From Ignavibacteriales bacterium (GTDB taxonomy: Bacteria; Bacteroidota; Ignavibacteria; UBA10030; UBA6906), in NCBI GenBank assembly GCA_037441705.1, contig JBBIRR010000004.1, forward strand, positions 39,241 through 103,240: a stretch of DNA of 64,000 nucleotides, read 5' to 3'. A program made the translations under genes and the position numbers. The notes under the pieces are model-generated. The model was not told the DNA's origin. It made no database searches and worked only from the letters and a program-made list of their open reading frames with translations. Of this stretch, positions 5,401 through 64,000 are shown piece after piece; the stretch's first letter is position 1; each line of letters begins with the position of its first letter.

Positions 5401-6258
5401 ATGAGCCGTCTCAAGCTTGCTCTGCTCGTGGTCTTGTCCGCGGCCTCGATTGGCGGTGCAGGCTACATGCTTGGGTACGAGGGCATTCTCTTCGCATTTC
5501 TCCTCTGGCTTGTGCTTGTGGTCGGATTGGTGTGGATTGCAGATAAGTTTGTGCTGAAGCTGTGCAATGCCGAGCTGCTGACGGTGTATCACAGTCCGAT
5601 GATTTTCGAGGCGGTGAAGGAGGTGAGCACGCGGGCCGGGCTGCCGATGCCGGCAGTGTACATGATGCCGGGCGATGCACCCAATCTGTTCTCGGTGGGA
5701 CGCAGCCAACGGCACGCGGGCGTTGTGGTTACCGAAGGGATTCTCAATGCAATGAATGCAGAGGAGTTCAGAAGCGCGATTGCGCATGAGATGGTGCACA
5801 TCTTTCGCAACGACACGCTGCTTGCCTCGCTTGCCGCCACCCTCGCAGGCTTCCTCGGCATGGGTTCGCGCCGGGCACGCCTTGCCGCTTCTGTCCCTTC
5901 CAACGGCAAGAAGAGTCTGTTTGCCTTCCCGGGCATCCTCATCTTCACTGCGCCCGTTGCTGCTCTCATTATTCAATCACTTGTCTCCCCACGAAGGGAA
6001 TTGCGAGCAGATCTTCTTGGCGCAAAACTCATGGGGAACCCCTCGGCAATGGCAAGCGCCATTCGCATCATGGAAAAGAGAAAGCATGCGGTACCGCTTT
6101 CAGTCGCGCCCGCGGTGTCGCACCTGTTCATGGTCAATCCTCTTCCTCACGGACGGGCAGCGCGTATGTTCTCTGTGCACCCGCCGCTGGCGGATCGAGT
6201 TCGAGTGCTTGAAGAGTTGCAGAAGAAATTAGACGCCAATGTACCTACAGCAGCGTAG
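5401..6258 (+). CDS. htpX: M48 zinc metalloprotease HtpX-like
   Basis: TM segments, HEMVH (HExxH), RELRAD, FSVHPP. Confidence 0.8.
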   Translation: MSRLKLALLVVLSAASIGGAGYMLGYEGILFAFLLWLVLVVGLVWIADKFVLKLCNAELLTVYHSPMIFEAVKEVSTRAGLPMPAVYMMPGDAPNLFSVGRSQRHAGVVVTEGILNAMNAEEFRSAIAHEMVHIFRNDTLLASLAATLAGFLGMGSRRARLAASVPSNGKKSLFAFPGILIFTAPVAALIIQSLVSPRRELRADLLGAKLMGNPSAMASAIRIMEKRKHAVPLSVAPAVSHLFMVNPLPHGRAARMFSVHPPLADRVRVLEELQKKLDANVPTAA

Positions 6259-11534: not shown

Positions 11535-12359
11535 GTGACGCGCAAAAAGGTTGGCGTGATTTCCCTTCTCATGCTCGCGGTGTTTTGTGGATTCGAAATC
11601 TATCATCAAACCGGCATGGTGCACGCAACGCGCAAGAACGGGTACGGCTGTCTCTGTCACGGCTTTGACCCTTCGGACAGCGTTCGCGTGTGGATCACCG
11701 GTCCGGATTCGCTCCGCCCGGGTGAACAAGCAACGTACTTCATCAACATTGCGCGGCAGCCAAACATTGCCGCAGGGTTCAATGTTGCGGCGTATCGGGG
11801 ATCGCTCGGCATCGCCGATTCTCAGTGGACGCAATTGCTGACCGAATCGCCGGGGGTTGACAGTCTCGAATTGACGCACACATGGCCCCGGCCGGGTAAC
11901 GGCAGGGATACAATCTCGTGGGCCTTTTTCTACAAAGCCCCGACGACAATCGGCATGATCGATACGCTGTATGCCGTCGGCAACTCCGTGAATCTCGACA
12001 CGCTGCCGGATCCTCCCGGCGATGCGTGGAACTTTAGTCCGAATTTTGCCGTACGCGTTGTACCGTCAACGTCGGTAAACGTGACGGAGACGCCCGGCAC
12101 ATTCCAGTTGTTCCAGAATTATCCGAATCCGTTCAATCCAACCACGACGATTCGGTATGCGCTTGCGTCGAGATCGCGTGTTACGTTGAAGGTGTACAGC
12201 GTCCTTGGGAAAGAAGTCGCGACGCTGGTCAACGACGTGAAGCCGGCCGGCACGCACACCGTTCAGTTTCATGCAGCGAGCTTTTCGAGCGGCATCTACT
12301 TCTATGAATTGAACGTCGGCGATGCCGTCCTGACGAAAAAGATGCTGCTGCTTCGGTGA
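11535..12359 (+). CDS. T9SS-secreted Reeler/choice-of-anchor V-like protein with CxCH motif
   Basis: RBS AGGAGG + GTG; signal peptide; GYGCLCH; ELTH; C-terminal QNYPNPFNPTT...KMLLLR. Confidence 0.75.
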   Translation: MTRKKVGVISLLMLAVFCGFEIYHQTGMVHATRKNGYGCLCHGFDPSDSVRVWITGPDSLRPGEQATYFINIARQPNIAAGFNVAAYRGSLGIADSQWTQLLTESPGVDSLELTHTWPRPGNGRDTISWAFFYKAPTTIGMIDTLYAVGNSVNLDTLPDPPGDAWNFSPNFAVRVVPSTSVNVTETPGTFQLFQNYPNPFNPTTTIRYALASRSRVTLKVYSVLGKEVATLVNDVKPAGTHTVQFHAASFSSGIYFYELNVGDAVLTKKMLLLR

Positions 12360-54907: not shown

Positions 54908-55818
54908 GACGCCTGCTCCTCCACAGCATGCTGTTGTTCGTAGTACGCCGTATGCTTCCAACGTTTGTGCATCCACAACCAGTGGTCGGGATGCCGGCGA
55001 ATCCATCGTTCAAGGACGGCAACATGCCGGCGCGTCAGCTCGATGATGTTCTCCTCGTTGTACCCGCCGAGGTCGTGCTGAGCGACTTCCTCCAGCGTCA
55101 GCGTGTATGTTCCATCATGCTGGCGGACAAGAAAGCCCATCACGATCGGGGCGCCGGATTTCAGGCTGAACGCAGCGACCCCTCGATGCGTGGCCGCAGG
55201 GCGCCCGAAGAATTCGACGAACACTGCCTCTTTGGGTCCGCTCTGATCCGCGAGCAGGGGGACGATGCGATTCTCGGCGAGGGCTGTCAGCACTCTTCTC
55301 GAGGCGACGCCCATCGGAATCGTGTCGTTCCCGAAGCGCCTGCGGATAGCGTCAATGCGGGCGTCGATTCTTGCATTGCGTTGATGCTGTACCAGCGTCG
55401 CGGCCGGAACGCCGAACTGCAAACTCGAAGCCGTCACGAGAAACTCCCACGCGCCGAAATGTCCTGAAAGAAACAACACGCCCTTCCGGCGCTCGAGCGC
55501 ACTGCGCATCACCTCGGGATTCTGAATGCGGACAAGAGGAATCAACGTCACGGCCGGTTTGTCGCTTGCCCAGAGGAATTCGAGGAGGGCAATGCCGTAG
55601 TTGCGGTAGGCGCCCCGGGCGATGGCACGACGCTCCGCTTCGCTTTTTTCGGGGAACGCATGCCGTAGATTCTCCAGCGTAACCTTCTTGCGGAAGCTGG
55701 TGAAAGAAAAAACGGCATCGCCCAGAAGCGCACCAAGCCGCTCCGCTGTTCGGAACGACAGCAGCCGGGCAATCCGGTGAACAACAGCAAAGAGGAAGTA
55801 TTCGATCGAATCGCGCAT
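54904..55818 (-). CDS. Lipid A late acyltransferase (LpxL/HtrB family)
   Basis: NLRHAFP, GHFGAWE, LLADQ, FFGRPA, WLWMHKRWK. Confidence 0.9.
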   Translation of the reverse strand: MRDSIEYFLFAVVHRIARLLSFRTAERLGALLGDAVFSFTSFRKKVTLENLRHAFPEKSEAERRAIARGAYRNYGIALLEFLWASDKPAVTLIPLVRIQNPEVMRSALERRKGVLFLSGHFGAWEFLVTASSLQFGVPAATLVQHQRNARIDARIDAIRRRFGNDTIPMGVASRRVLTALAENRIVPLLADQSGPKEAVFVEFFGRPAATHRGVAAFSLKSGAPIVMGFLVRQHDGTYTLTLEEVAQHDLGGYNEENIIELTRRHVAVLERWIRRHPDHWLWMHKRWKHTAYYEQQHAVEEQAS

Positions 55819-55961
55819 GGGAAGAAACATCTGACCTAACTTAACCAAATCAACAGGAACAAACAAGAAAGCCCACTTGCGTGATGGTGGTGAGGATGAT
55901 TGAACTTGAACGCAGGAAGAGGATTGTTTACATTGTCCACAGTTCTCACCACGAGGTGCCC

Positions 55962-56222
55962 ATGAGACCCATCGTCGTGTTCGCGCTTGTCGCGTCGTGG
56001 CATTTTCACCAGGGTGCATCCGCACAACCTCAGCTCTGGGACGTCTATTCAGTATCCAAACGGCCCTTCGTGAACGTCACCATCGACCGATTTGAATCGG
56101 ACTCACTTTTCATGAAGGCGATGAACCAGGTGTTTGTGCTTCATCAGGACTCCGTCGAGTACGTGTTGCGAAAGAACAAATCCCAGTTTGCACTCGGCTT
56201 TCTGATCGGGGCGGTTGTTTGA
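55962..56222 (+). pseudogene. Probably truncated exported protein
   Basis: RBS GAGGTG; signal peptide; stops abruptly in hydrophobic FALGFLIGAVV just before a palindrome cluster. Confidence 0.45.
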
Positions 56223-56262
56223 GGGAAGGGTGGGCCACGTGTGCCGCGGCGCCCGGATCAGT

Positions 56263-56350
56263 CCGTCTCTACGCGACGGCCGTTCTGATGCGAATGCCGT
56301 TATCCCGACCTTGAAAGGTCGGGCTATCGTCATGAGGTCACTCCGTGACC
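56263..56350. repeat. REP-like three-hairpin element
   Basis: CCGTC-tctacgc-GACGG (56263-79); CCCGACCT-tgaa-AGGTCGGG (56304-23); GGTCAC-tcc-GTGACC (56336-50). Confidence 0.6.
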
Positions 56351-56422
56351 ACACGATTGCCGAGCGCACAGCATGCAGAAACCGCGTATCGTCAACGGAA
56401 GCATACAGCATTCTTCACATCA

Positions 56423-56505
56423 GGACACGGCGGAGCCGCGGCCCTACACAACACCCTTCGACTCCGTCCTGCCTGAGAAGCGGCGGGACTGCGCTCAGGG
56501 TGACA
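56423..56505. repeat. REP-like palindromes
   Basis: Minus-strand GTAG-foot palindrome GTAGGGCCGCGGCTCCGCCGTGTCC; CCCTTCGACTCC...GCGCTCAGGGTGACA with an internal GTCCTGCC/GGCGGGAC hairpin. Confidence 0.5.
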
Positions 56506-56755
56506 CGAGCGTCCGGAGGTCACGGCTTATGAGCCGCACAACCTGCGCCGTGATGGAAGGGCGGGAATGTGAGCTTGCCGCGGTGCGCCTGACCATGTTG
56601 AATTGATGTAAAGACAAAAAACAGCCGAGGCTTAGCCCAGCACGAAGAACGCACTGAAGTCCGCGACATTCTCGCTGCGAGGTCGCTGCTTTCCAAACTC
56701 TAAGAATCCTTGCACCGTCATTCCTCATTTTCTTGCAATTTACGCTATTTTGGGT

Positions 56756-56771
56756 TGGCATAGGCCTTGAT
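56756..56771 (+). promoter_or_regulatory. Candidate sigma54 (-24/-12) promoter
   Basis: TGGCAT-AGGCC-TTGAT: exact TGGCAC-N5-TTGC spacing with a GA variant at -12; about 45 nt upstream of the porin start. Confidence 0.5.
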
Positions 56772-56817
56772 GCCCTGCTGTTGCATCATTCAACACCCAC
56801 CAAGCAAAGGAGTAACT

Positions 56818-57882
56818 ATGAGGCTTTCTTCACATTTCATCATCGCAGTACTTGTTGCCGTGCTTGGTGTTCAGAGAGCAACCGCCCAGGAAAAGTCCGG
56901 CGGCAAAGTCCACGGCTGCCTGTTCGGCGACTACTTCTACAAGATTGCCGGAGACTCCACCGGCAACGGCTCGCAGTATTCGTCCCTGAAGAAGGATGAG
57001 CAAGCATTTCAGTTCCGCCGATTCTATCTCTACTACGATCATATCTTCAACGAGACGTTCAGCGCACAGTTCTTGTTGGAAGGGAACGACAAGGCTCTCG
57101 AACCGGGTGGAAGGCACGGCGTGTTTGTGAAGACCGCCTATCTCGAATGGAAGGACATCATCCCGATGGGGAATCTCATGATCGGATTGGTCCCGACGCC
57201 GACGTGGAGCTCGCCGGGAAGTGTCGCCGAGAAAATCTGGAACTATCGCTCGATTGAAAAAACGATCGCCGACTTCCGTTGTCTCGGAAGCGCGTCGGAT
57301 ATCGGTGTATCGCTGCGCGGCAATTTCGACGGCGAAGGAAAATTCAACTACGTCGCAATGATCGGCAACGGAACCGGGCAGAAGCCGGAGAACAACAAGT
57401 ACAAGAAGTACTACGCAGGACTCCGAGCCAAACCTGTGAATGAGTTTGTCATCGAAGGATATGTTGACTTCGAACCGGCCGCCGGGGATAAAGACAAAAC
57501 CACGCTGAAAGGCTTCGCCGCCTACCAAACCGAAACATTCACCGCCGGCGTTGAGGTCGTGACGCAGACGCAGAAGAAAGCCGGCGCCGCTGGAGCCGAC
57601 CGCTCGCCGTTCGGCGTCTCGTTCTTCGCGTGGGCGCCGATACCCGGCGTGGACAACCTGAATGCCTTTGCTCGCTATGACTTCTTCAATCCCGATACCA
57701 AAGTCCCGAAAGCCGGCTTCAACGAAAGCTTCATCACCGCCGGTCTCGACTACATGCCCATCAAGAATGTTCACTTCATGCCGAACGTTTGGGTCAACAC
57801 GTTTTCGGATAAGAGTCCGGCAGGTGTGAGTCGCGATGCAGATGTCGTTGCACGACTCACATTCTTCTTTGTCTACAAATAG
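56818..57882 (+). CDS. Outer-membrane porin-like beta-barrel
   Basis: RBS AAAGGAG; signal peptide; FQFRRFYL, FVKTAYLEW, DIGV, amphipathic strands, terminal aromatic strand. Confidence 0.75.
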   Translation: MRLSSHFIIAVLVAVLGVQRATAQEKSGGKVHGCLFGDYFYKIAGDSTGNGSQYSSLKKDEQAFQFRRFYLYYDHIFNETFSAQFLLEGNDKALEPGGRHGVFVKTAYLEWKDIIPMGNLMIGLVPTPTWSSPGSVAEKIWNYRSIEKTIADFRCLGSASDIGVSLRGNFDGEGKFNYVAMIGNGTGQKPENNKYKKYYAGLRAKPVNEFVIEGYVDFEPAAGDKDKTTLKGFAAYQTETFTAGVEVVTQTQKKAGAAGADRSPFGVSFFAWAPIPGVDNLNAFARYDFFNPDTKVPKAGFNESFITAGLDYMPIKNVHFMPNVWVNTFSDKSPAGVSRDADVVARLTFFFVYK

Positions 57883-57896
57883 AAAGGACGAACGCC

Positions 57897-58796
57897 ATGC
57901 AGGATACGGCTGAAAAGAAAAAGTTTTCGCGTCGCGCCTTCTTCAAACACACGACAGGTGTTGCGGCCGGAGCGGTTGCTGCAACAGCGCTGCTGCCTAC
58001 AATCAAGGAAGTGGGAACGCTCGTTGCCGATACGGTCGGCGGCCCTTCGAACAACGACGTGCTCACCATGCACAACGATCTCCAGCGGGCGTTACAGAAA
58101 CCAATGGAGCAGAGAAAGTGGGCGATGGTGATTGACGTCCGCAAGTGTATCGGGTGCAACGCGTGCACCGCCGCGTGTATCGCTGAGAACAATCTGCCCG
58201 TCGGCGTGACGTATCGGACGGTTGCGGAAGTGGAAGACGGCGAGTTCCCAAATGTCCGTCGCTTCTTCATGCCAACCAACTGCATGCAGTGCGAGAACGC
58301 TCCCTGCATCGAAGCAGCGAACAGTGTCATCCCCGGTTCGATGTCACGACGCCCGGACGGCATCGTCGTGATTGACTACAAGAAGATGAAGGGGAAGAAA
58401 GTTTTCGACGCAGCCAGCGCAGCATGTCCGTATCCGAACTCGCTCTGGTATGATGAAGGGAAGAATTACACCGACGGGACGCCTGCTTTGCAGCCGTATG
58501 AAAAGCGGACGTTCAAGGAGTACGGCACGCAATGGACTCGCAAGGACACCAAAGGCGCTACGCGCAAGTGTCACTTCTGCACGCAGCGCATTGATGCCGG
58601 CGAGCTTCCCGCCTGCGTGACAACATGTACGGGTCAGGCGATGCACTTTGGCGACGTGAACGACGACGAGAGTCTCGTCTCCAAATTGCTCAAGCGCAAC
58701 AAGGCGGCACGCCTGAATCTCGCCAGCGGCGCCGAACCGATGATCTACTATCTGGATGACGATCCAGAACAGACATGTATGGTTTGTCATTCATAG
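57897..58796 (+). CDS. Tat-exported DmsB/TtrB-like Fe-S subunit with three clusters and a C-terminal CxxCH
   Basis: SRRAFFK; WAMVIDVRKCIGCNACTAAC; CMQCENAPC; ACPY; KCHFC...PACVTTC; CMVCHS-stop. Confidence 0.85.
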   Translation: MQDTAEKKKFSRRAFFKHTTGVAAGAVAATALLPTIKEVGTLVADTVGGPSNNDVLTMHNDLQRALQKPMEQRKWAMVIDVRKCIGCNACTAACIAENNLPVGVTYRTVAEVEDGEFPNVRRFFMPTNCMQCENAPCIEAANSVIPGSMSRRPDGIVVIDYKKMKGKKVFDAASAACPYPNSLWYDEGKNYTDGTPALQPYEKRTFKEYGTQWTRKDTKGATRKCHFCTQRIDAGELPACVTTCTGQAMHFGDVNDDESLVSKLLKRNKAARLNLASGAEPMIYYLDDDPEQTCMVCHS

Positions 58797-58803
58797 TGGA
58801 GTT

Positions 58804-58859
58804 TGGGCTAAAGCCCATGGATGGTAAAGTTCTTCGTGTCCCCGACCTGAAGGTTGGGG
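58804..58859. repeat. REP-like element
   Basis: TGGGCT-aa-AGCCCA and CCCCGACC-tgaa-GGTTGGGG, related to the 56304 palindrome. Confidence 0.55.
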
Positions 58860-58912
58860 GGAAGAGCCGCAGCTTCAGAGATCAGACGGCTGTTCGCATT
58901 GTGCGGGGGAGT

Positions 58913-59118
58913 CCGAAATCGCTGGCGGTGTGCGGAGGGAAGAATCAATCGAAGCGTTTAAGTTTCGGTGCGATTGCAAGATCGATTCGGATACGGTGTC
59001 CGCGCGGTGCACCGAAACTTTCGGGCAAGTGCGGGGGAGATTGATTCGTGCGTTGCGATTTCGGCGTCCTTTTTCTTTTCGCCCATTTTCTTTTTGGACG
59101 AGCAAAAAGAAAATGGGC
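58913..59118. other. Structured non-coding element (nested long stems plus a terminal 16-bp hairpin)
   Basis: Perfect pairings 58913-22/59055-64, 58942-50/59039-47, 58960-71/59009-20 and 59081-96/59103-18. Confidence 0.65.
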
Positions 59119-59224
59119 ACAGGCAAGAGTGAACTTCCGGTAATCGAGCGGAGTATATCAACGACAGATGTTTTTGTTCCTGTTCAGTCACTATGAGTTT
59201 CCATTACGATAGGAGAACCTGACG

Positions 59225-62200
59225 ATGTCGAACGAAACCGTTATGCCACTCGAGCGCTCCTGCAAAGCGAAAAAGGATTCCGGCACCCGCCGTCGTTTTC
59301 TCAAAAGCTCTGCGTTCCTTGGCGGCAGCGCCGTGTTTCTCAGCCAGTTCGAATGGGCGCAGAACCTTTTCGCTAAAGCACAGGCGGGCACCCTCTCCCC
59401 TGCCGAGGAGTACGAGCTTTCCAAAGCAGAAAACATCCTGCGCTCCGTCTGTCTGCAATGCAACACCGGCTGCGGCATCAAAGTGAAAGTGCTCAACGGC
59501 GTAGCGGTGAAGATCGAAGGCAATCCGTACAGCCCCTGGACGTTTGTTCCGAGCCTGCCGTACACGACTCCGCTGAACGAAACGACGAAGATCAACGGCT
59601 CGCTCTGTCCGAAAGGTCAGGCAGGCATTCAAACGGCATACGATCCGTACCGGCTTGTCAAAGTGCTGAAGCGCGCCGGCAAGCGCGGCGAGAACAAGTG
59701 GAAAACGATTTCGTTCGAGCAAGCGGTCAGCGAGATCGTCACCGGCGGAAAGCTGTTCTCGCACGTCAAGGGAGAGGAGAATCGGCACGTCGAGGGACTG
59801 AAAGATTTGTACGCTCTCAGAGACCCGAAGGTCGCACAGGAGATGGCGTCGGCAATCGCTGAGATTCGAAAAAAGAAAACGCCTGAGGAGAAGAAAGCGG
59901 CCGTCGAAGAGTTCAAGAAGAAGTTTGCCGATCATCTCCACACGCTCATCGACCCGGATCATCCCGATCTCGGTCCGAAGAACAATCAGGTCAGCTTCAT
60001 CTGGGGCAGACTGAAAGCCGGACGGGCGGAGTTCATCAATCGGTTCATTAAGGAGTCGTTCGGCTCGATAAATGCGCATGGCCACACAACGGTATGTCAA
60101 GGGTCGCTCTATTTTACGGGCTACGCGATGAGCAACCAGGTCATCGAGGGCAAGTTTACGGGCGGACAGAAATTCTACTGGCAGGCAGACACGAGCAACG
60201 TGGAATTCCTTTTAGCAATCGGCTCGGCGTACATCGAAGGCGGATACGGTCCAACTCATCATGCCAAGAAGCTGATGAAGAATCTCGTCGAGAAGAAAGT
60301 GAAGATTGCCGTCGTCGACCCACGCTTCTCGAAGATCGCATCGAAAGCCTACAAGTGGGTGCCGATCAAACCGGGCACGGACGGTGCATTCGCTCTGGCA
60401 ATGATTCGCTGGATCATCGAGAACAAACGCTACGATGCGAAGTTCTTGCAGAATGCCAACCGGGCCGCAGCGAACGCCGCCGGCGAGCAGTCGTGGACGA
60501 ACGGCACGTGGTTGGTAAAAGAAGACGGCTCGTTCTTGCGTGCATCGGAGATCAACCTTGCGCCGAAAGAGAAGCGGCAGAGCAAAGACGGCAAAGAATG
60601 GGAGTTCGACGCCTTCGTCGTGATGAAGGACGGCAAGCCGGTTGCGTTCGACCCGAACGACGAGAAGAACGCCGTCACGGGCGACTTGCTCGTCAACACC
60701 GCCGTTGGCGGTATTCCTGTGAAGAGCAGTCTGCAGCTTCTCTCTGAATCCGCCGCACAGCATACGATCGAAGAGTGGGCAGAGATCTGCGGCATCAAGG
60801 CAGACGACATCATCGAGCTTGCGCGCGAGTTCACCTCGCACGGCAAAAAAGCCGTCGCCGATCCGCATCGCGGCGTCTCGCAGCACACGAACGGCTTCTA
60901 CAATGTGCTCGCAGTCTTCTCGCTCAACGCTCTCATCGGCAACTACGATTGGAAGGGCGGCATGATCAAAGTCTCCACCTACGCCATTGACGGCTCGAAG
61001 GAAGGTAATCCGTTCCCCATCGGCAAGATGCATCCGAACAAGATCTCGCCGTTCGGTATCAGCATCATTCGCCACGACGTGAAGTACGAAGAGTCCACCA
61101 TCTTTTCCGGCTATCCTGCGAAGCGCCAGTGGTATCCGTTCTCAAGCGACATCTACGAAGAAATCATTCCCTCGATGGGCGATGCATACCCGTATCCGTC
61201 GAAGATTCTCTTCTCGTACATGGCGGCAGCGCCGTATGCGCTCCCCGGCGGACACACGAACATCGAGATTCTCGTTGACGTGAACAAGATTCCGCTTTAC
61301 GTTGCGAGCGACATCACCATCGGCGAGATGTCCATGTATGCCGATTACATTTTCCCAGACCTCACGTATCTCGAGCGGTGGGAGTTTCACGGCAGTCACC
61401 CGAGCATCCCGCAGAAAGCCCAACCGGTGCGCAACCCCGTCATCGCGCCGATACCGGAAAGCGTGAAGGTTTTCGGCGAGCAACAGCCGATCTCGTTGGA
61501 GACGATGATTCTCGGCATTGCAGAGAAGTTGGGACTGCCCGGCTTCGGCAAGAATGGTCTGGGTGAAGGGATGGACCTTGTGCGGCAGGAAGATTTTTAC
61601 CTGCGGATGGTGGCGAATCTCGCCGCCGGAGACAAACCGGGCGACGAAGTGCCCGATGCGGACGAGTGGGAGTTGCAGCAATTCGAACAGGCACGCCGTC
61701 ACCTGCCGAAGACGGTGTTCGACGTCGAGCGATGGAAGAGAATCGTCGGCGAGCAGTGGTGGAAGAAAGTGGTGTACGTGCTGAATCGCGGCGGTCGTTT
61801 TCAGGATTACGAGAAGGCGTATGATGGTGAGAAGTTCAGAAACAAGTACGGACAGCTCATCAACCTGTATTTGGAGAAACACGCGCACGGCAAGTCGGCA
61901 ATTACCGGTAAGCACTACCCAGGCATTGCGACATACGTTCCGGTTGCCGACGTGATGGGCAATGAAGTGCACGACGAGCGCGAAGGCTTCGATCTGCACA
62001 TGATCACCTTCCGCGACGTTACGCAGACGAAGAGCCGGACCATCACCAACTACTGGTTGAGTGCGATTCGGCCGCAGAACTTCGTACTCGTCAACTCAGC
62101 CGATGCAAGCCGACTCGGTTTGAGTGATGGGGAGAAGGTGAAGTTTGTTTCCAAGACCAACGCCGAGGGAGTGTATGACCTCAAGAACGGTAGGAAGAAA

Positions 62201-62467
62201 CCAATGGTCGGAGAGGTGAAAGTCATCGAGGGAATTCGCCCCGGCATCATCGGTTTTTCACTGGGACACGGCCATTGGGCAAACGGCTCGTCTGATGTAG
62301 TTGTTGATGGAAAGATAATCAAAGGCGATCCACGTCGCGCCACAGGTGTTCACGCGAACGCCGCCATGCGTCTGGATGATTACTTGAAGAACACGTGCCT
62401 GCTCGATCCCGTCGGCGGAAGCGTGTCGTTCTACGATACGAAGGTGAAGCTGGTGAAGGTGGGGTGA
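59225..62467 (+). CDS. Tat-exported Mo/W-bisPGD oxidoreductase catalytic subunit, TtrA/SrdA-like (tetrathionate/selenate reductase clade)
   Basis: RBS AGGAG; TRRRFLK; CLQCNTGC...CPKG; HGHTTVCQGS (Cys ligand); ADYIFPDLTYLERWE; DPVGGSVSFYDTKV. Confidence 0.85.
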   Translation: MSNETVMPLERSCKAKKDSGTRRRFLKSSAFLGGSAVFLSQFEWAQNLFAKAQAGTLSPAEEYELSKAENILRSVCLQCNTGCGIKVKVLNGVAVKIEGNPYSPWTFVPSLPYTTPLNETTKINGSLCPKGQAGIQTAYDPYRLVKVLKRAGKRGENKWKTISFEQAVSEIVTGGKLFSHVKGEENRHVEGLKDLYALRDPKVAQEMASAIAEIRKKKTPEEKKAAVEEFKKKFADHLHTLIDPDHPDLGPKNNQVSFIWGRLKAGRAEFINRFIKESFGSINAHGHTTVCQGSLYFTGYAMSNQVIEGKFTGGQKFYWQADTSNVEFLLAIGSAYIEGGYGPTHHAKKLMKNLVEKKVKIAVVDPRFSKIASKAYKWVPIKPGTDGAFALAMIRWIIENKRYDAKFLQNANRAAANAAGEQSWTNGTWLVKEDGSFLRASEINLAPKEKRQSKDGKEWEFDAFVVMKDGKPVAFDPNDEKNAVTGDLLVNTAVGGIPVKSSLQLLSESAAQHTIEEWAEICGIKADDIIELAREFTSHGKKAVADPHRGVSQHTNGFYNVLAVFSLNALIGNYDWKGGMIKVSTYAIDGSKEGNPFPIGKMHPNKISPFGISIIRHDVKYEESTIFSGYPAKRQWYPFSSDIYEEIIPSMGDAYPYPSKILFSYMAAAPYALPGGHTNIEILVDVNKIPLYVASDITIGEMSMYADYIFPDLTYLERWEFHGSHPSIPQKAQPVRNPVIAPIPESVKVFGEQQPISLETMILGIAEKLGLPGFGKNGLGEGMDLVRQEDFYLRMVANLAAGDKPGDEVPDADEWELQQFEQARRHLPKTVFDVERWKRIVGEQWWKKVVYVLNRGGRFQDYEKAYDGEKFRNKYGQLINLYLEKHAHGKSAITGKHYPGIATYVPVADVMGNEVHDEREGFDLHMITFRDVTQTKSRTITNYWLSAIRPQNFVLVNSADASRLGLSDGEKVKFVSKTNAEGVYDLKNGRKKPMVGEVKVIEGIRPGIIGFSLGHGHWANGSSDVVVDGKIIKGDPRRATGVHANAAMRLDDYLKNTCLLDPVGGSVSFYDTKVKLVKVG

Positions 62468-62559
62468 CGCGCGGGTTCAGCAGGGGGCAGGTGTGAAGAC
62501 ATTGCAAAGTGCCGAGTTGTACGAAGGTTCACAATCCGGTTCGGTGCGATAAGCCCGTG

Positions 62560-64000
62560 TCACCTTTTCAGCTCTGCCATGATCCGGGCAATCTCTTCAC
62601 CTTTTTCCTCAATCAGCGCTAACAACTCCTCCGGCGTGCGCGTGTCTTCGTTGTTCTTGCGGTGGGGGTTGACCGCTTTGAGGTCAAAGTTTTTGGCCTC
62701 GATCTCTTGGCGCGTTACGGTCCAACTGTGCTCGCTGTCGGCGCGCTCCGGCAGCAGGCGGAAGAACTCGTCAAAGTGGGCCAGCGTCAGCGGCGTTTTC
62801 TTGCCCACCTTGATATCCGAAAGATCATAGTACCAGATCCGCTCTGTCGGCTTGCCCTTAGTGAAGAAGAGCAGGTTGGTCTTGACACCGGCGCCGGCGT
62901 TGACGAACGCGCCTGGCGGCAGGCTCACGATGCACCACAGGTCGCAGTCATCCAGCAGTTTGCGTTTGGTCTGCACAAAGGCGGTCTCGTTGGTGCGAAA
63001 GAGCACCCCTTCATCCAGCACGATGCCGCACCGGCCATCCGGCTTGAGGCTGTCTATCACGTGCTGGAGAAAAAGCACCTGCGTGGCGCTCGTCTTGTAG
63101 GCAAAGCGGGTCTGGGCGTCTTTGCCTTCCTTGCCGCCGAAGGGCGGATTCATCAGCACCACGTCGTACAGAGACGGCGCGTCCTGAAACAGCCCACCGT
63201 AGATCTCTGCGCCCGTCAAGGTGTTGCCGTGCCAGATATGCGGCTCGTCGATGCCATGCAACATCAAGTTCGCCAGGGCGATGGGATAGATGGCGTTATC
63301 CTTCTCGCGACCGTAAAAGGTGCGGCGTTTGAGGGTCTCCAATTGTTCGGGCACGGTGATATTTTGGTGTTTATCGCCGGCCATGTGTTCGTAAGCTTGC
63401 GCCAAAAAGCCGCCGGTCCCGCAACCCGGATCATAGACCGTTTCGCCTATCTTCGGGTTGATCACCCGCACCATGGCTCGGATGACCTCGCGCGGTGTGA
63501 AGAACTGGCCTCCGTCGTTGCCCTTTTCGCCCATCTTCAAGAGGAGCCCCTCGTACACCTGCGAGAGGGTAAAGACGTGCGTGGGGTCCACGGACTCGGA
63601 GCTGATCTCGTTGACCTTGTCCAGCACGTCGAGCAGGTTGCGCTCGGTGTCGATGCGCGTGCGCTCGATGCCGGAAAAGATCTCGCTGATGACCTTCTGC
63701 CGCGGCGTGGCGTTGGGGCGGTCTTTGAGGCCCTTGAGATGCGGGATCAACTCGTTGTTGACGAAACTAAAGAATGCGCCCAGGGCGCTGATTTCCATGG
63801 CTTTCCTTTTCGGCTCGTCCGGCGCGGCCCAATCGCACCAGCGATAGGGCGCTTCCAGCGATGGGATGAATTCAGCGCCCACGGCCTCGGCCGCCTCTGC
63901 CTCGTGGGCCTCGCGCTCGTCCAGGATCCGCAAGAACAAGATCCAGGTCAGTTCCGGCACGTATTGCAGCGCACCGGCGCAGTTGGAACGCCGCATAATG
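62560..64000 (-). CDS. hsdM: Type I restriction-modification M subunit (N6-adenine methyltransferase), 5' end outside the window
   Basis: GQFFTPR, YDPGCGTGGF, NPPF. Confidence 0.9.
   Translation of the reverse strand, partial: IMRRSNCAGALQYVPELTWILFLRILDEREAHEAEAAEAVGAEFIPSLEAPYRWCDWAAPDEPKRKAMEISALGAFFSFVNNELIPHLKGLKDRPNATPRQKVISEIFSGIERTRIDTERNLLDVLDKVNEISSESVDPTHVFTLSQVYEGLLLKMGEKGNDGGQFFTPREVIRAMVRVINPKIGETVYDPGCGTGGFLAQAYEHMAGDKHQNITVPEQLETLKRRTFYGREKDNAIYPIALANLMLHGIDEPHIWHGNTLTGAEIYGGLFQDAPSLYDVVLMNPPFGGKEGKDAQTRFAYKTSATQVLFLQHVIDSLKPDGRCGIVLDEGVLFRTNETAFVQTKRKLLDDCDLWCIVSLPPGAFVNAGAGVKTNLLFFTKGKPTERIWYYDLSDIKVGKKTPLTLAHFDEFFRLLPERADSEHSWTVTRQEIEAKNFDLKAVNPHRKNNEDTRTPEELLALIEEKGEEIARIMAELKR

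Follow-up and report, generated by a model that had tools for sequence, protein, structure and literature searches.

The described systems closest to the locus reported here are the TtrBCA enzymes of the Salmonella type, a copy of which is carried by a Klebsiella plasmid (locus L088), and a group of Ttr homologues presented as non-Arr arsenate reductases in passages of PMC11462812, PMC5492636, PMC13608581, and PMC11362583. These homologues, from Anaeromyxobacter sp. PSR-1, Geobacter sp. OR-1, Melioribacter roseus (MROS_1076), Limisphaera, and Pyrobaculum (PAE1265), are portrayed in those passages as distinct, Ttr-related catalytic (A) subunits of organisms without ArrA, with As(V)-linked expression and a possible role in As(V) reduction (PMC11462812, PMC5492636, PMC13608581), and transcripts of Ttr homologues are reported to outnumber those of arrA in arsenic-releasing paddy soils (a passage of PMC11462812). 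Within a 64,000-nucleotide stretch of DNA from an Ignavibacteriales bacterium (the window, G000:C4:39241-103240, which ends where the contig ends; G, L, and C numbers denote the genomes, loci, and contigs examined), we identified three co-oriented plus-strand genes that encode a porin, an iron-sulfur (Fe-S) subunit designated B*, and a molybdopterin-dependent subunit, A, all with intact reading frames. Our preferred, if tentative, interpretation is that together they form a complete operon whose product is a soluble, periplasmic oxyanion reductase from the Ttr-homologue clade, in which B* bears a haem tail and for which arsenate is the leading candidate substrate.

The window operon resembles TtrBCA in that its A subunit carries a twin-arginine translocation (Tat) signal and is predicted to bind molybdenum-bis(pyranopterin guanine dinucleotide) (Mo-bisPGD), with the FS0 cluster and a Cys ligand to the metal, and in that B is encoded before A; a sensor with a Phosphonate-bd domain accompanies relatives of the operon, and this domain is also present in TtrS. 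It differs in the absence of TtrC, in the three clusters and C-terminal CxxCH tail of B*, and in the porin gene at its head, and TtrA falls outside the A family on our tree. In common with the Ttr-homologue arsenate reductases, the window clade includes proteins of Geomonas, Geotalea, and Geobacter and loci of the order c7-B-A-Acr3-ArsC; those reductases are, however, described in the passages available with TtrC or a small cytochrome rather than with a three-cluster, CxxCH-tailed B, and an arsenite pump was not found in the genome to which the window belongs. The sulfur disproportionators provide a further point of comparison, with Ttr homologues in Desulfolithobacter (GF1_03930-50) and Dissulfuribacter (porin plus ttrBCA at DITHS69_1081-1084; a TtrC-less pair at DITHS69_0683-0684): an OprO/P-like porin in synteny with a Ttr homologue is in print (a passage of PMC13490349), and forms described as "TtrAB lacking TtrC" are recorded in Caldimicrobium, Desulfobulbus, and other taxa (a passage of PMC9751629). 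Both genera are represented among the loci that we mapped (L019; L074, L076, L079, and L085). In contrast to the window, the porin-linked enzyme of the disproportionators keeps TtrC in the passages available from these two papers, which do not mention loss of an Fe-S cluster or a haem motif.

The feature that most clearly separates the window operon from these systems is B*. Its cysteines fall into three complete groups (C84/87/90/94, C129/132/137/177, and C225/228/240/244), and its C-terminus reads ...TCMVCHS. When B* was aligned to PsrB (2vpw_B), three Cys groups were seen to be kept and the four Cys of one cluster replaced, with the fourth Cys of group II lost in a change from CP to AN and the C-x2-C-x2-C of group III giving way to KGKKVFDAAS; alignment to 39 four-cluster relatives revealed the same loss. 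The four replaced positions in the FdnH, NarH, and PsrB structures presumably bind the distal cluster, which faces the membrane subunit. The NCBIfam model that fits B* best is TtrB, with 120.7 bits against a cut-off of 416; ArrB scored 119 bits against a cut-off of 450, and neither cut-off was reached.

A survey of 53 B subunits (the window and 52 loci with a B gene next to a family A gene) indicated how cluster loss and tail are distributed. Four clusters were present in 39 of them, none of which has a terminal CxxCH, whereas 12 of the 14 three-cluster subunits end in this motif; the two exceptions, with C-x3-H in L012 and His only in L044, are both encoded beside multihaem cytochromes. The B* of L006 represents a thirteenth three-cluster CxxCH case outside the 53-sequence count. 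These counts do not represent independent events, because the sequences are kin: on the B tree all 14 B* tips form a single clade with a support of 1.0, and the exchange of cluster for tail therefore happened once. The sister group consists of Omnitrophota B subunits, encoded in the order porin-B-NrfD-A in two of three loci. Across 20 B* sequences H298 is invariant, and C294 and Met58, the latter in an N-terminal helix specific to B*, are each conserved in at least 90%; among the best 150 representatives from a 50%-identity library, a terminal CxxCH was present in four. Our literature searches found no report of a three-cluster B with a CxxCH tail, and the papers that contain both TtrB and CXXCH do not connect the two terms. 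The loss of the four cluster-binding Cys is real, and its combination with the tail appears to be unreported.

ArrAB is a soluble periplasmic AB heterodimer that has no anchor of its own and is fed by a membrane cytochrome. The ArrB of Shewanella sp. ANA-3 (PDB 6CZ7) is the best match to B* in the PDB by both structure and sequence, and the AlphaFold2 model of B*, with a predicted local distance difference test (pLDDT) score of 74, has a fold closest to those of ArrB and PsrB; in contrast to B*, ArrB keeps four Cys groups and has no haem tail, and the window A and B subunits score below the ArrA and ArrB cut-offs. The third-best fold match is the small subunit of pyrogallol-phloroglucinol transhydroxylase (PDB 4V4C chain B), likewise a beta subunit of the complex iron-sulfur molybdoenzyme (CISM) family that belongs to a soluble enzyme, and one that we take to carry three rather than four clusters; it differs in being cytoplasmic and in having neither an electron wire to a partner nor a CxxCH tail. 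B* unites features expected of a c-type cytochrome, since the CxxCH lies in a Tat-exported polypeptide and the genome contains four Cytochrom_C_asm genes of the CcsA/CcmF type, and we regard the C-terminal motif as a probable haem tail.

The A subunit has the attributes of a catalytic subunit of the dimethyl sulfoxide reductase/CISM family: three Pfam domains above their cut-offs (Molybdopterin, 2.5e-14; Molydop_binding, 1.7e-8; Molybdop_Fe4S4, 5e-9), an FS0 motif, and a candidate Cys ligand to molybdenum. This residue, C291, aligns with the Cys in the ...SHSSVCAE... segment of ArrA, which we take to be the molybdenum ligand of that enzyme. The best NCBIfam model is TtrA (NF011567, an equivalog), at 505.5 bits, well short of the cut-off of 1750; PhsA scored 216 bits and ArrA 121.2 bits, the latter against a cut-off of 1600 that was likewise not reached. 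Identity is 28.9% to plasmid-encoded proteins named TtrA by the NCBI annotation pipeline (PGAP) and 34.6% to the enzyme encoded on a Citrobacter arsenatis plasmid. A protein search yielded 3215 matches among 7999 scored candidates, the 120 that were listed being all at least 61% identical to A. A genome scan of a species-level collection recovered 573 encoding stretches among 599 pattern matches, and the best 80 loci, at 55 to 89% identity, were mapped; they come from Bacteroidota/Ignavibacteriales, Chloroflexota, Rokubacteria/NC10, Omnitrophota, Armatimonadota, Nitrospirota, Desulfobulbaceae, Geobacteraceae, and archaea. In a FastTree analysis rooted with the PsrA-like protein of the same genome and omitting L014 and L043, where A is incomplete, the window A and the 78 other loci formed one tight clade, with true TtrA and the Citrobacter type as its sister. 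A is 83 to 89% identical to its nearest relatives, in which every catalytic motif that we checked is kept, and 55 to 64% identical both to NrfD-linked and c7-linked forms and to the proteins of the Caldimicrobium, Desulfobulbus, and Geobacteraceae loci; proteins from Geomonas, Geotalea, and Geobacter isolates also fall in the family. By its sequence, A belongs to a very large and highly conserved Ttr-homologue clade. The earlier note on this DNA had put the operon forward as a candidate for an undescribed system; given the size of the clade and the presence in print of TtrC-less forms, porin synteny, and a possible As(V) role, this proposal is not supported. We are dealing with a known but biochemically uncharacterized kind of enzyme, and what differs is its B*-type, porin-headed form.

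Four operon types are represented among the 80 loci: B-NrfD-A, which is the ttrBCA order; c7-B-A; B-A alone; and porin-B-A. An NrfD gene is present somewhere in 22 loci and a triheme cytochrome c7 gene somewhere in 28, but no locus with B* has a c7 gene before B* or an NrfD gene between B* and A; in L044 the c7 gene follows A, and in L011 an FeS-NrfD-TorD module stands apart on the upstream side. In L007 to L009, porin-B-A is followed by unrelated genes. The same A is encoded in G003, G046, and G047, with the order porin-B-A read directly in G003 and G046, and neither NrfD nor a second B follows A in the B*-A relatives L006 to L009, G003, and G046. Apparent NrfD genes after A in L076, L079, and L085 were rejected: the protein with 10 transmembrane segments in L076 is Acr3/SBF, and those of L079 and L085 match it by BLAST. 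Several B* operons are accompanied by cytochrome genes. L006, whose A is 89% identical to that of the window, reads B*-A-porin paralogue-MtrA-like decahaem-8-haem-9-haem; L044 reads B*-A-c7-decahaem-MtrB/PioB; CcsA and three multihaem cytochromes precede B* in L012; a cytochrome b561-like gene precedes B* and a Rieske gene follows A in L049; and in G046 a gene for a cytochrome c-cytochrome c-EB_dh protein stands before porin-B*-A. The B* gene of L006 (6473-6520) and the decahaem gene about 5 kb downstream (11889-11936) encode the same first 16 residues, MKMSEKRDTATGGVKR. L006 and L044 recall DmsEFAB of Shewanella with its MtrAB-type conduit, in that genes for a decahaem cytochrome and an outer-membrane barrel (MtrB/PioB in L044) adjoin that of a molybdoenzyme, but the molybdoenzyme is of another family, and the window has no conduit genes beside the operon.

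The earlier note had described three co-oriented exported proteins without an NrfD/TtrC-type subunit or TorD chaperone between or after them, followed by a convergent hsdM gene, and our analysis bears this out. The coordinates, signal peptide, and Tat motifs agree, no NrfD or TorD gene occurs within 56818-62467 or downstream of A in the window, the five NrfD genes of the genome all lie on other contigs (two on C12 and one each on C26, C30, and C34), and PF02613 (TorD/NarJ) was not found in the genome, which is rated 100% complete. Its proposals of a self-contained, anchor-less periplasmic AB pair, of a remodelled Fe-S subunit whose alteration it left unspecified, and of electron exchange with a cytochrome likewise accord with the shared layout of the relatives, with the four Cys lost and the CxxCH gained by B*, and with the cytochrome genes beside B*-A. 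The genome itself contains 18 open reading frames (ORFs) with at least three CxxCH motifs. A cluster at G000:C34:19945-36952 encodes 13-, 19-, 6-, 11-, and 5-haem cytochromes, a B-like Fe-S protein, NrfD, a Tat-exported Rieske-like protein, and cytochrome b, and is a candidate quinol:cytochrome module able to feed periplasmic enzymes. Together, these multihaem proteins, the cytochrome maturation genes, and the C34 cluster provide for a periplasmic cytochrome pool supplied by quinol-oxidising modules.

The porin at the head of the operon had no Pfam match at E values up to 0.01, PF07396 included, and no NCBIfam match. Its N-terminus, MRLSSHFIIAVLVAVLGVQRATA followed by QE, reads as a signal peptide; its AlphaFold2 model has 16 strands at a mean pLDDT of 87; and the structural matches of the model include PorB, Omp32, OprP, and OprO among many porins. 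Some of its 863 homologues, at 53 to 59% identity, carry PF07396, and the syntenic porins of L011 and L028 score 1.7e-29 and 1.4e-18 for this family. Judged from the model and these relatives, the protein probably belongs to the OprO/P-related family of 16-strand anion porins, and selectivity for anions is predicted. The alternative of an MtrB-like sheath around a cytochrome is not favored, as a protein of 354 residues and 16 strands would be too small. PorOP-type porins stand beside family A genes in 8 of the 80 loci and in the window, across three operon types (B-NrfD-A, B-A alone, and porin-B-A); this link recurs across lineages and supports the earlier proposal of a dedicated substrate porin. 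The porin does not, however, belong to the A enzyme alone. In a survey of 61 genomes from the order, its family was present in 34 and A in 5; orthologues with at least 60% identity occur in six genomes, four of which were found to encode A, and G049 and G057 have orthologues at 61 to 62% identity although no A was found in them. A paralogue or orthologue lies directly 5' of nrfH-nrfA in L096 (G041:C8, 4318-8361), and a relative lies near a narG/narH-like gene pair that is accompanied by genes for Rrf2 and hemerythrin in L091 (G057:C56, 2-8220). These arrangements suggest that members of the order tend to have an anion porin encoded with their periplasmic anion reductases, be these of the Ttr-like, nrfHA, or narGH-like kind.

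Table 1. Features of the porin-B*-A locus (positions are those of the window)
Feature	Position	Strand	Description
B* Fe-S subunit	57897..58796	+	299 aa; Tat; Fer4_11; 12 Cys for three [4Fe-4S]
B* Tat motif S-R-R-A-F-F-K, residues 11-17	57927..57947	+	UCR_Fe-S_N Tat-signal match
B* CxxCH motif C294-M-V-C297-H298	58776..58790	+	haem-c type; one residue before stop
A, molybdopterin catalytic subunit	59225..62467	+	1080 aa; Tat-exported; Ttr-homologue clade
A Tat motif T-R-R-R-F-L-K, residues 21-27	59285..59305	+	R22 and F25 invariant in 16 family members
A FS0 [4Fe-4S] motif C76-x2-C79-x3-C83-x44-C128	59450..59608	+	all four Cys invariant in 16 sequences
A C291 in HGHTTVCQGS	60095..60097	+	probable Mo-ligand Cys; invariant in 16 sequences
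Porin-like gene	56818..57882	+	354 aa; ATG at 56818 preceded by AAAGGAG; Sec signal peptide; OprO/P-related family
B-A spacer	58797..59224	.	428 bp; perfect 16-nt inverted repeat at 59081-59118 with 6-nt loop
att-like direct repeat, 3' end of A	62390..62461	+	72 bp; 94% identity to C62:12638-12567
hsdM (type I restriction-modification methylase)	62560..63996	-	N6_Mtase 3e-61; convergent; cut by contig end
Upstream intergenic region	56026..56817	.	792 bp; divergent from lipopolysaccharide/housekeeping genes; dispersed-repeat copies; weak sigma54-like element

The 3' end of A (Table 1) recurs elsewhere in the genome. In a tblastn search of its own genome, A gave a single extra match, consisting of the 37 C-terminal residues, on contig C62. 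One flank of this copy contains restriction and defence genes (an Eco57I-type methylase, T5orf172/ResIII, and an HsdR_N fragment), and the other, co-oriented with the A remnant, encodes a Reg_prop/Y_Y_Y sensor kinase, a LuxR-type regulator, and type IX secretion system cargo proteins; the loose ends of public-run contigs at 62390 and 62461 agree with the C62 copy. The repeat, which preserves the reading frame of A to its stop codon, points to a restriction/defence island (window 62390-64000 together with L086, G000:C62 12567-17141) that has entered the gene at its 3' end; neither of the two contig pieces of the island showed an integrase. The hsdM gene belongs with this insertion rather than with the redox genes, and because the C62 copy of the repeat adjoins the regulators, the native downstream neighbor of A is a regulator pair and not B plus NrfD. 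The operon is thus not truncated, and the suggestion in the earlier note that distal genes of a longer operon had been lost is not upheld, the B*-A relatives also lacking a canonical B plus NrfD after A. Misassembly at the operon was likewise rejected, since public-run contigs from two studies cover B, the spacer, and A (58500-62550 in X2 record 9; 58641-59324 in X1 record 1) and one X1 contig (62449-62806) spans the junction between A and hsdM, X1 possibly being the sample from which the genome came. No RNA run was listed as containing the operon.

We propose that the OprO/P-related porin would admit an anionic substrate through the outer membrane and that A and B*, both with recognizable Tat signals, would be exported in the folded state, A holding FS0 and, as its motifs indicate, a Cys-ligated Mo-bisPGD site. 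B* would carry three [4Fe-4S] clusters, the fourth (presumably anchor-facing in FdnH, NarH, and PsrB) having been lost, and its C-terminal tail would be loaded with haem in the periplasm by the cytochrome c maturation system. The haem tail could then act as an electron port to periplasmic c-type cytochromes, which may in turn be connected to quinol-oxidising modules of the NrfCD or alternative complex III type or to outer-membrane conduits. It is possible, with the balance leaning slightly against it, that B* represents a new kind of electron-transfer subunit in which the distal [4Fe-4S] cluster was replaced, once, by a c-type haem attached after export to the CxxCH tail, possibly with Met58 as the sixth ligand. 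A quinone-coupled membrane enzyme would thereby have become a soluble module that plugs into periplasmic cytochromes, Mtr-type conduits included, and the reduction of an oxyanion such as arsenate could couple to extracellular electron exchange.

The leading candidate substrate is arsenate, As(V), which would be converted to As(III); sulfur oxyanions are second and a serious rival. Among the 80 loci, Acr3 is encoded in 10 and ArsC of the low-molecular-weight phosphatase type in 4, for example in the c7-B-A-Acr3-ArsC arrangement of L076. G003, from the same genus as the window, has the order porin-B*-A-flavoprotein-LMWPc, with the LMWPc gene two genes after A, and the As(V)-linked expression published for Ttr homologues (passages of PMC11462812, PMC5492636, and PMC13608581) likewise favors arsenate. 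The sister group adds a further arsenic link: on the IncFII conjugative plasmid of Citrobacter arsenatis (L087; NZ_CP037863.1, 532-10414), arsRDABC stands divergently beside a Ttr-like operon in which B is followed by a 335-residue protein and A by a 193-residue protein, with a second ArsC gene and phosphatases nearby, and the block is also matched on other plasmids of Citrobacter, Salmonella, E. coli, and Enterobacter. A gene for a Phosphonate-bd protein occurs in 11 of the 80 loci, often with genes for an sCache kinase and a sigma54 regulator, and in L009 such a module lies just 5' of porin-B-A; in this Ignavibacteriales relative, a small TatA-like ORF (at about 5618-5806) separates the sigma54 regulator gene from that of the porin. 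We considered this PhnD-like sensor, histidine kinase, and sigma54 module as a marker of arsenate and rejected it, because true TtrS has the same Phosphonate-bd domain and the sensor therefore does not point to arsenate.

A number of observations weigh against the interpretation of the operon as a haem-tailed arsenate reductase. The arsenic link in the genome itself is weak: Acr3/SBF, ArsB, and a Phosphonate-bd protein were not found in it, no ars gene lies near the operon, and among the 15 B* operons of the 80 loci and the window, Acr3/ArsC is nearby only in L015, to which the later genome survey added the LMWPc of G003 as a second B* operon with an ArsC-type neighbor. The porin has close orthologues in genomes where A was not found, and WP_059435911.1 and WP_041969781.1, the PSR-1 and OR-1 proteins quoted in a passage of PMC11462812, were not among the 10 Geobacteraceae clusters looked up. 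The same architecture might serve a sulfur oxyanion (tetrathionate, thiosulfate, polythionate, or sulfite) as a soluble Ttr-type sulfur-compound reductase, which we judge to be somewhat unlikely but deserving of serious consideration. TtrA is by far the best NCBIfam model for A, TtrB is the best for B, true TtrA and the Citrobacter type form the sister group, and the PhnD-like sensor is shared with TtrS; moreover, Ttr-type proteins are raised in cultures of sulfur disproportionators, those of the TtrBCA type being specific to thiosulfate disproportionation in Desulfolithobacter (a passage of PMC9751629) and a porin and ttrBCA homologue being more abundant with sulfite/H2 in Dissulfuribacter (a passage of PMC13490349). 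Set against this are the low identity of A to the annotated TtrA and a score far under the equivalog cut-off, the recurrence of arsenic genes beside family members, the lack of sulfur-trafficking genes next to annotated B*-A loci, and the PSR-1 homologue, which according to citing papers is without tetrathionate reductase activity (a passage of PMC9751629). The enzyme might also work in the oxidative direction, by analogy with Arx versus Arr, as a periplasmic dehydrogenase of arsenite or thiosulfate that passes electrons through the haem tail to the cytochrome c pool and on to oxidases or conduits. B* does occur in Rokubacteria/NC10-like, Armatimonadota-like, and Ignavibacteria-like genomes, class I cytochrome c domains are fused to EB_dh in G046, Rieske and cytochrome b genes flank the operon of L049, Mtr-type conduits are bidirectional, and the potential of a c-type haem could exceed that of the cluster that it replaced. 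Nevertheless, we consider this quite unlikely: A is 55 to 64% identical to NrfD- and c7-linked forms, whose partners are typical of reductases and whose loci carry Acr3 and ArsC, and As(OH)3, being uncharged at neutral pH, would not need an anion porin.

The remaining doubts concern the tail and the integrity of the operon. Residues 295-299 of B* have pLDDT values below 50 in the AlphaFold2 model, so the tail is unplaced relative to the vacated cluster site, and 3 of the 20 B* sequences keep the His but are short of at least one of the two Cys. It would be unusual for haem to be attached to a protein that Tat has exported in the folded state, and we know of no precedent. The CxxCH might accordingly be no haem site at all but a metal-binding site, a redox-active disulfide, or a docking peptide, with the last [4Fe-4S] cluster delivering electrons directly to a partner cytochrome. 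We regard this as unlikely, because CxxCH is the canonical haem c motif and here lies in the periplasm, the His is invariant and the first Cys nearly so, the tail occurs solely where the cluster has been lost, and both loci without CxxCH have extra cytochrome genes adjacent. Finally, the operon could be a decaying, non-functional remnant of a ttrBCA-type ancestor that lost its anchor, for instance through insertion of the island. The island does sit right at the 3' end of A, the 428-bp hairpin spacer between B and A has no counterpart of that length among the close relatives compared, and a TorD-type chaperone was not found; yet the three frames are intact, the repeat preserves that of A to its stop codon, the anchor-less layout recurs in L006 to L009, G003, G046, and G047, the catalytic motifs are kept among close relatives, and B* belongs to an old clade spread across phyla, all of which makes decay extremely improbable.

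The genes on the 5' side of the operon are on the minus strand and unrelated, encoding a lipid A acyltransferase (Lip_A_acyltrans), a heptosyltransferase (Glyco_transf_9), Sua5, and an ABC transporter. The distance between B and A is only 14 to 81 bp in L006 to L009, compared with that in the window (Table 1), and the spacer, short parts of which match contigs C15 and C20, could itself be a small insertion. Searches of 55500-64000 against Rfam gave no match at E values up to 0.1, and sigma70-like sites (2 observed, 2.5 expected) and terminator-like sites (9 observed, 8.3 expected) were at chance level. A weak sigma54-like element, TGGCAT-N5-TTGAT, lies approximately 50 nt before the porin ATG; the best match of the scan agrees with the consensus at 6 of 11 positions and is not counted as a finding. 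The region 5' of the porin gene (window 56250-56600) also contains members of a dispersed repeat family of about 50 to 300 bp and 74 to 96% identity that has no Rfam match; copies are present on at least 27 contigs of the genome, often in tandem or clustered.

In summary, the Ttr-homologue clade is widespread, with 573 genomic matches in many phyla, and its substrate range and wiring are unsettled. The three-cluster B with its probable haem tail marks a sub-clade without a quinol-oxidising anchor that can be recognized from sequence alone, and this could serve as an annotation rule, in that groups II and III without the cluster, together with a terminal CxxCH, separate anchor-less enzymes from truncated assemblies. 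In this order, the recurrent position of OprO/P-type porin genes ahead of those for periplasmic anion reductases points to substrate-specific entry through the outer membrane. If the haem is real, B* would provide an unusual case of c-type haem attachment to a Tat substrate and would illustrate the rerouting of a respiratory molybdoenzyme away from quinone and toward cytochrome or extracellular electron pathways.

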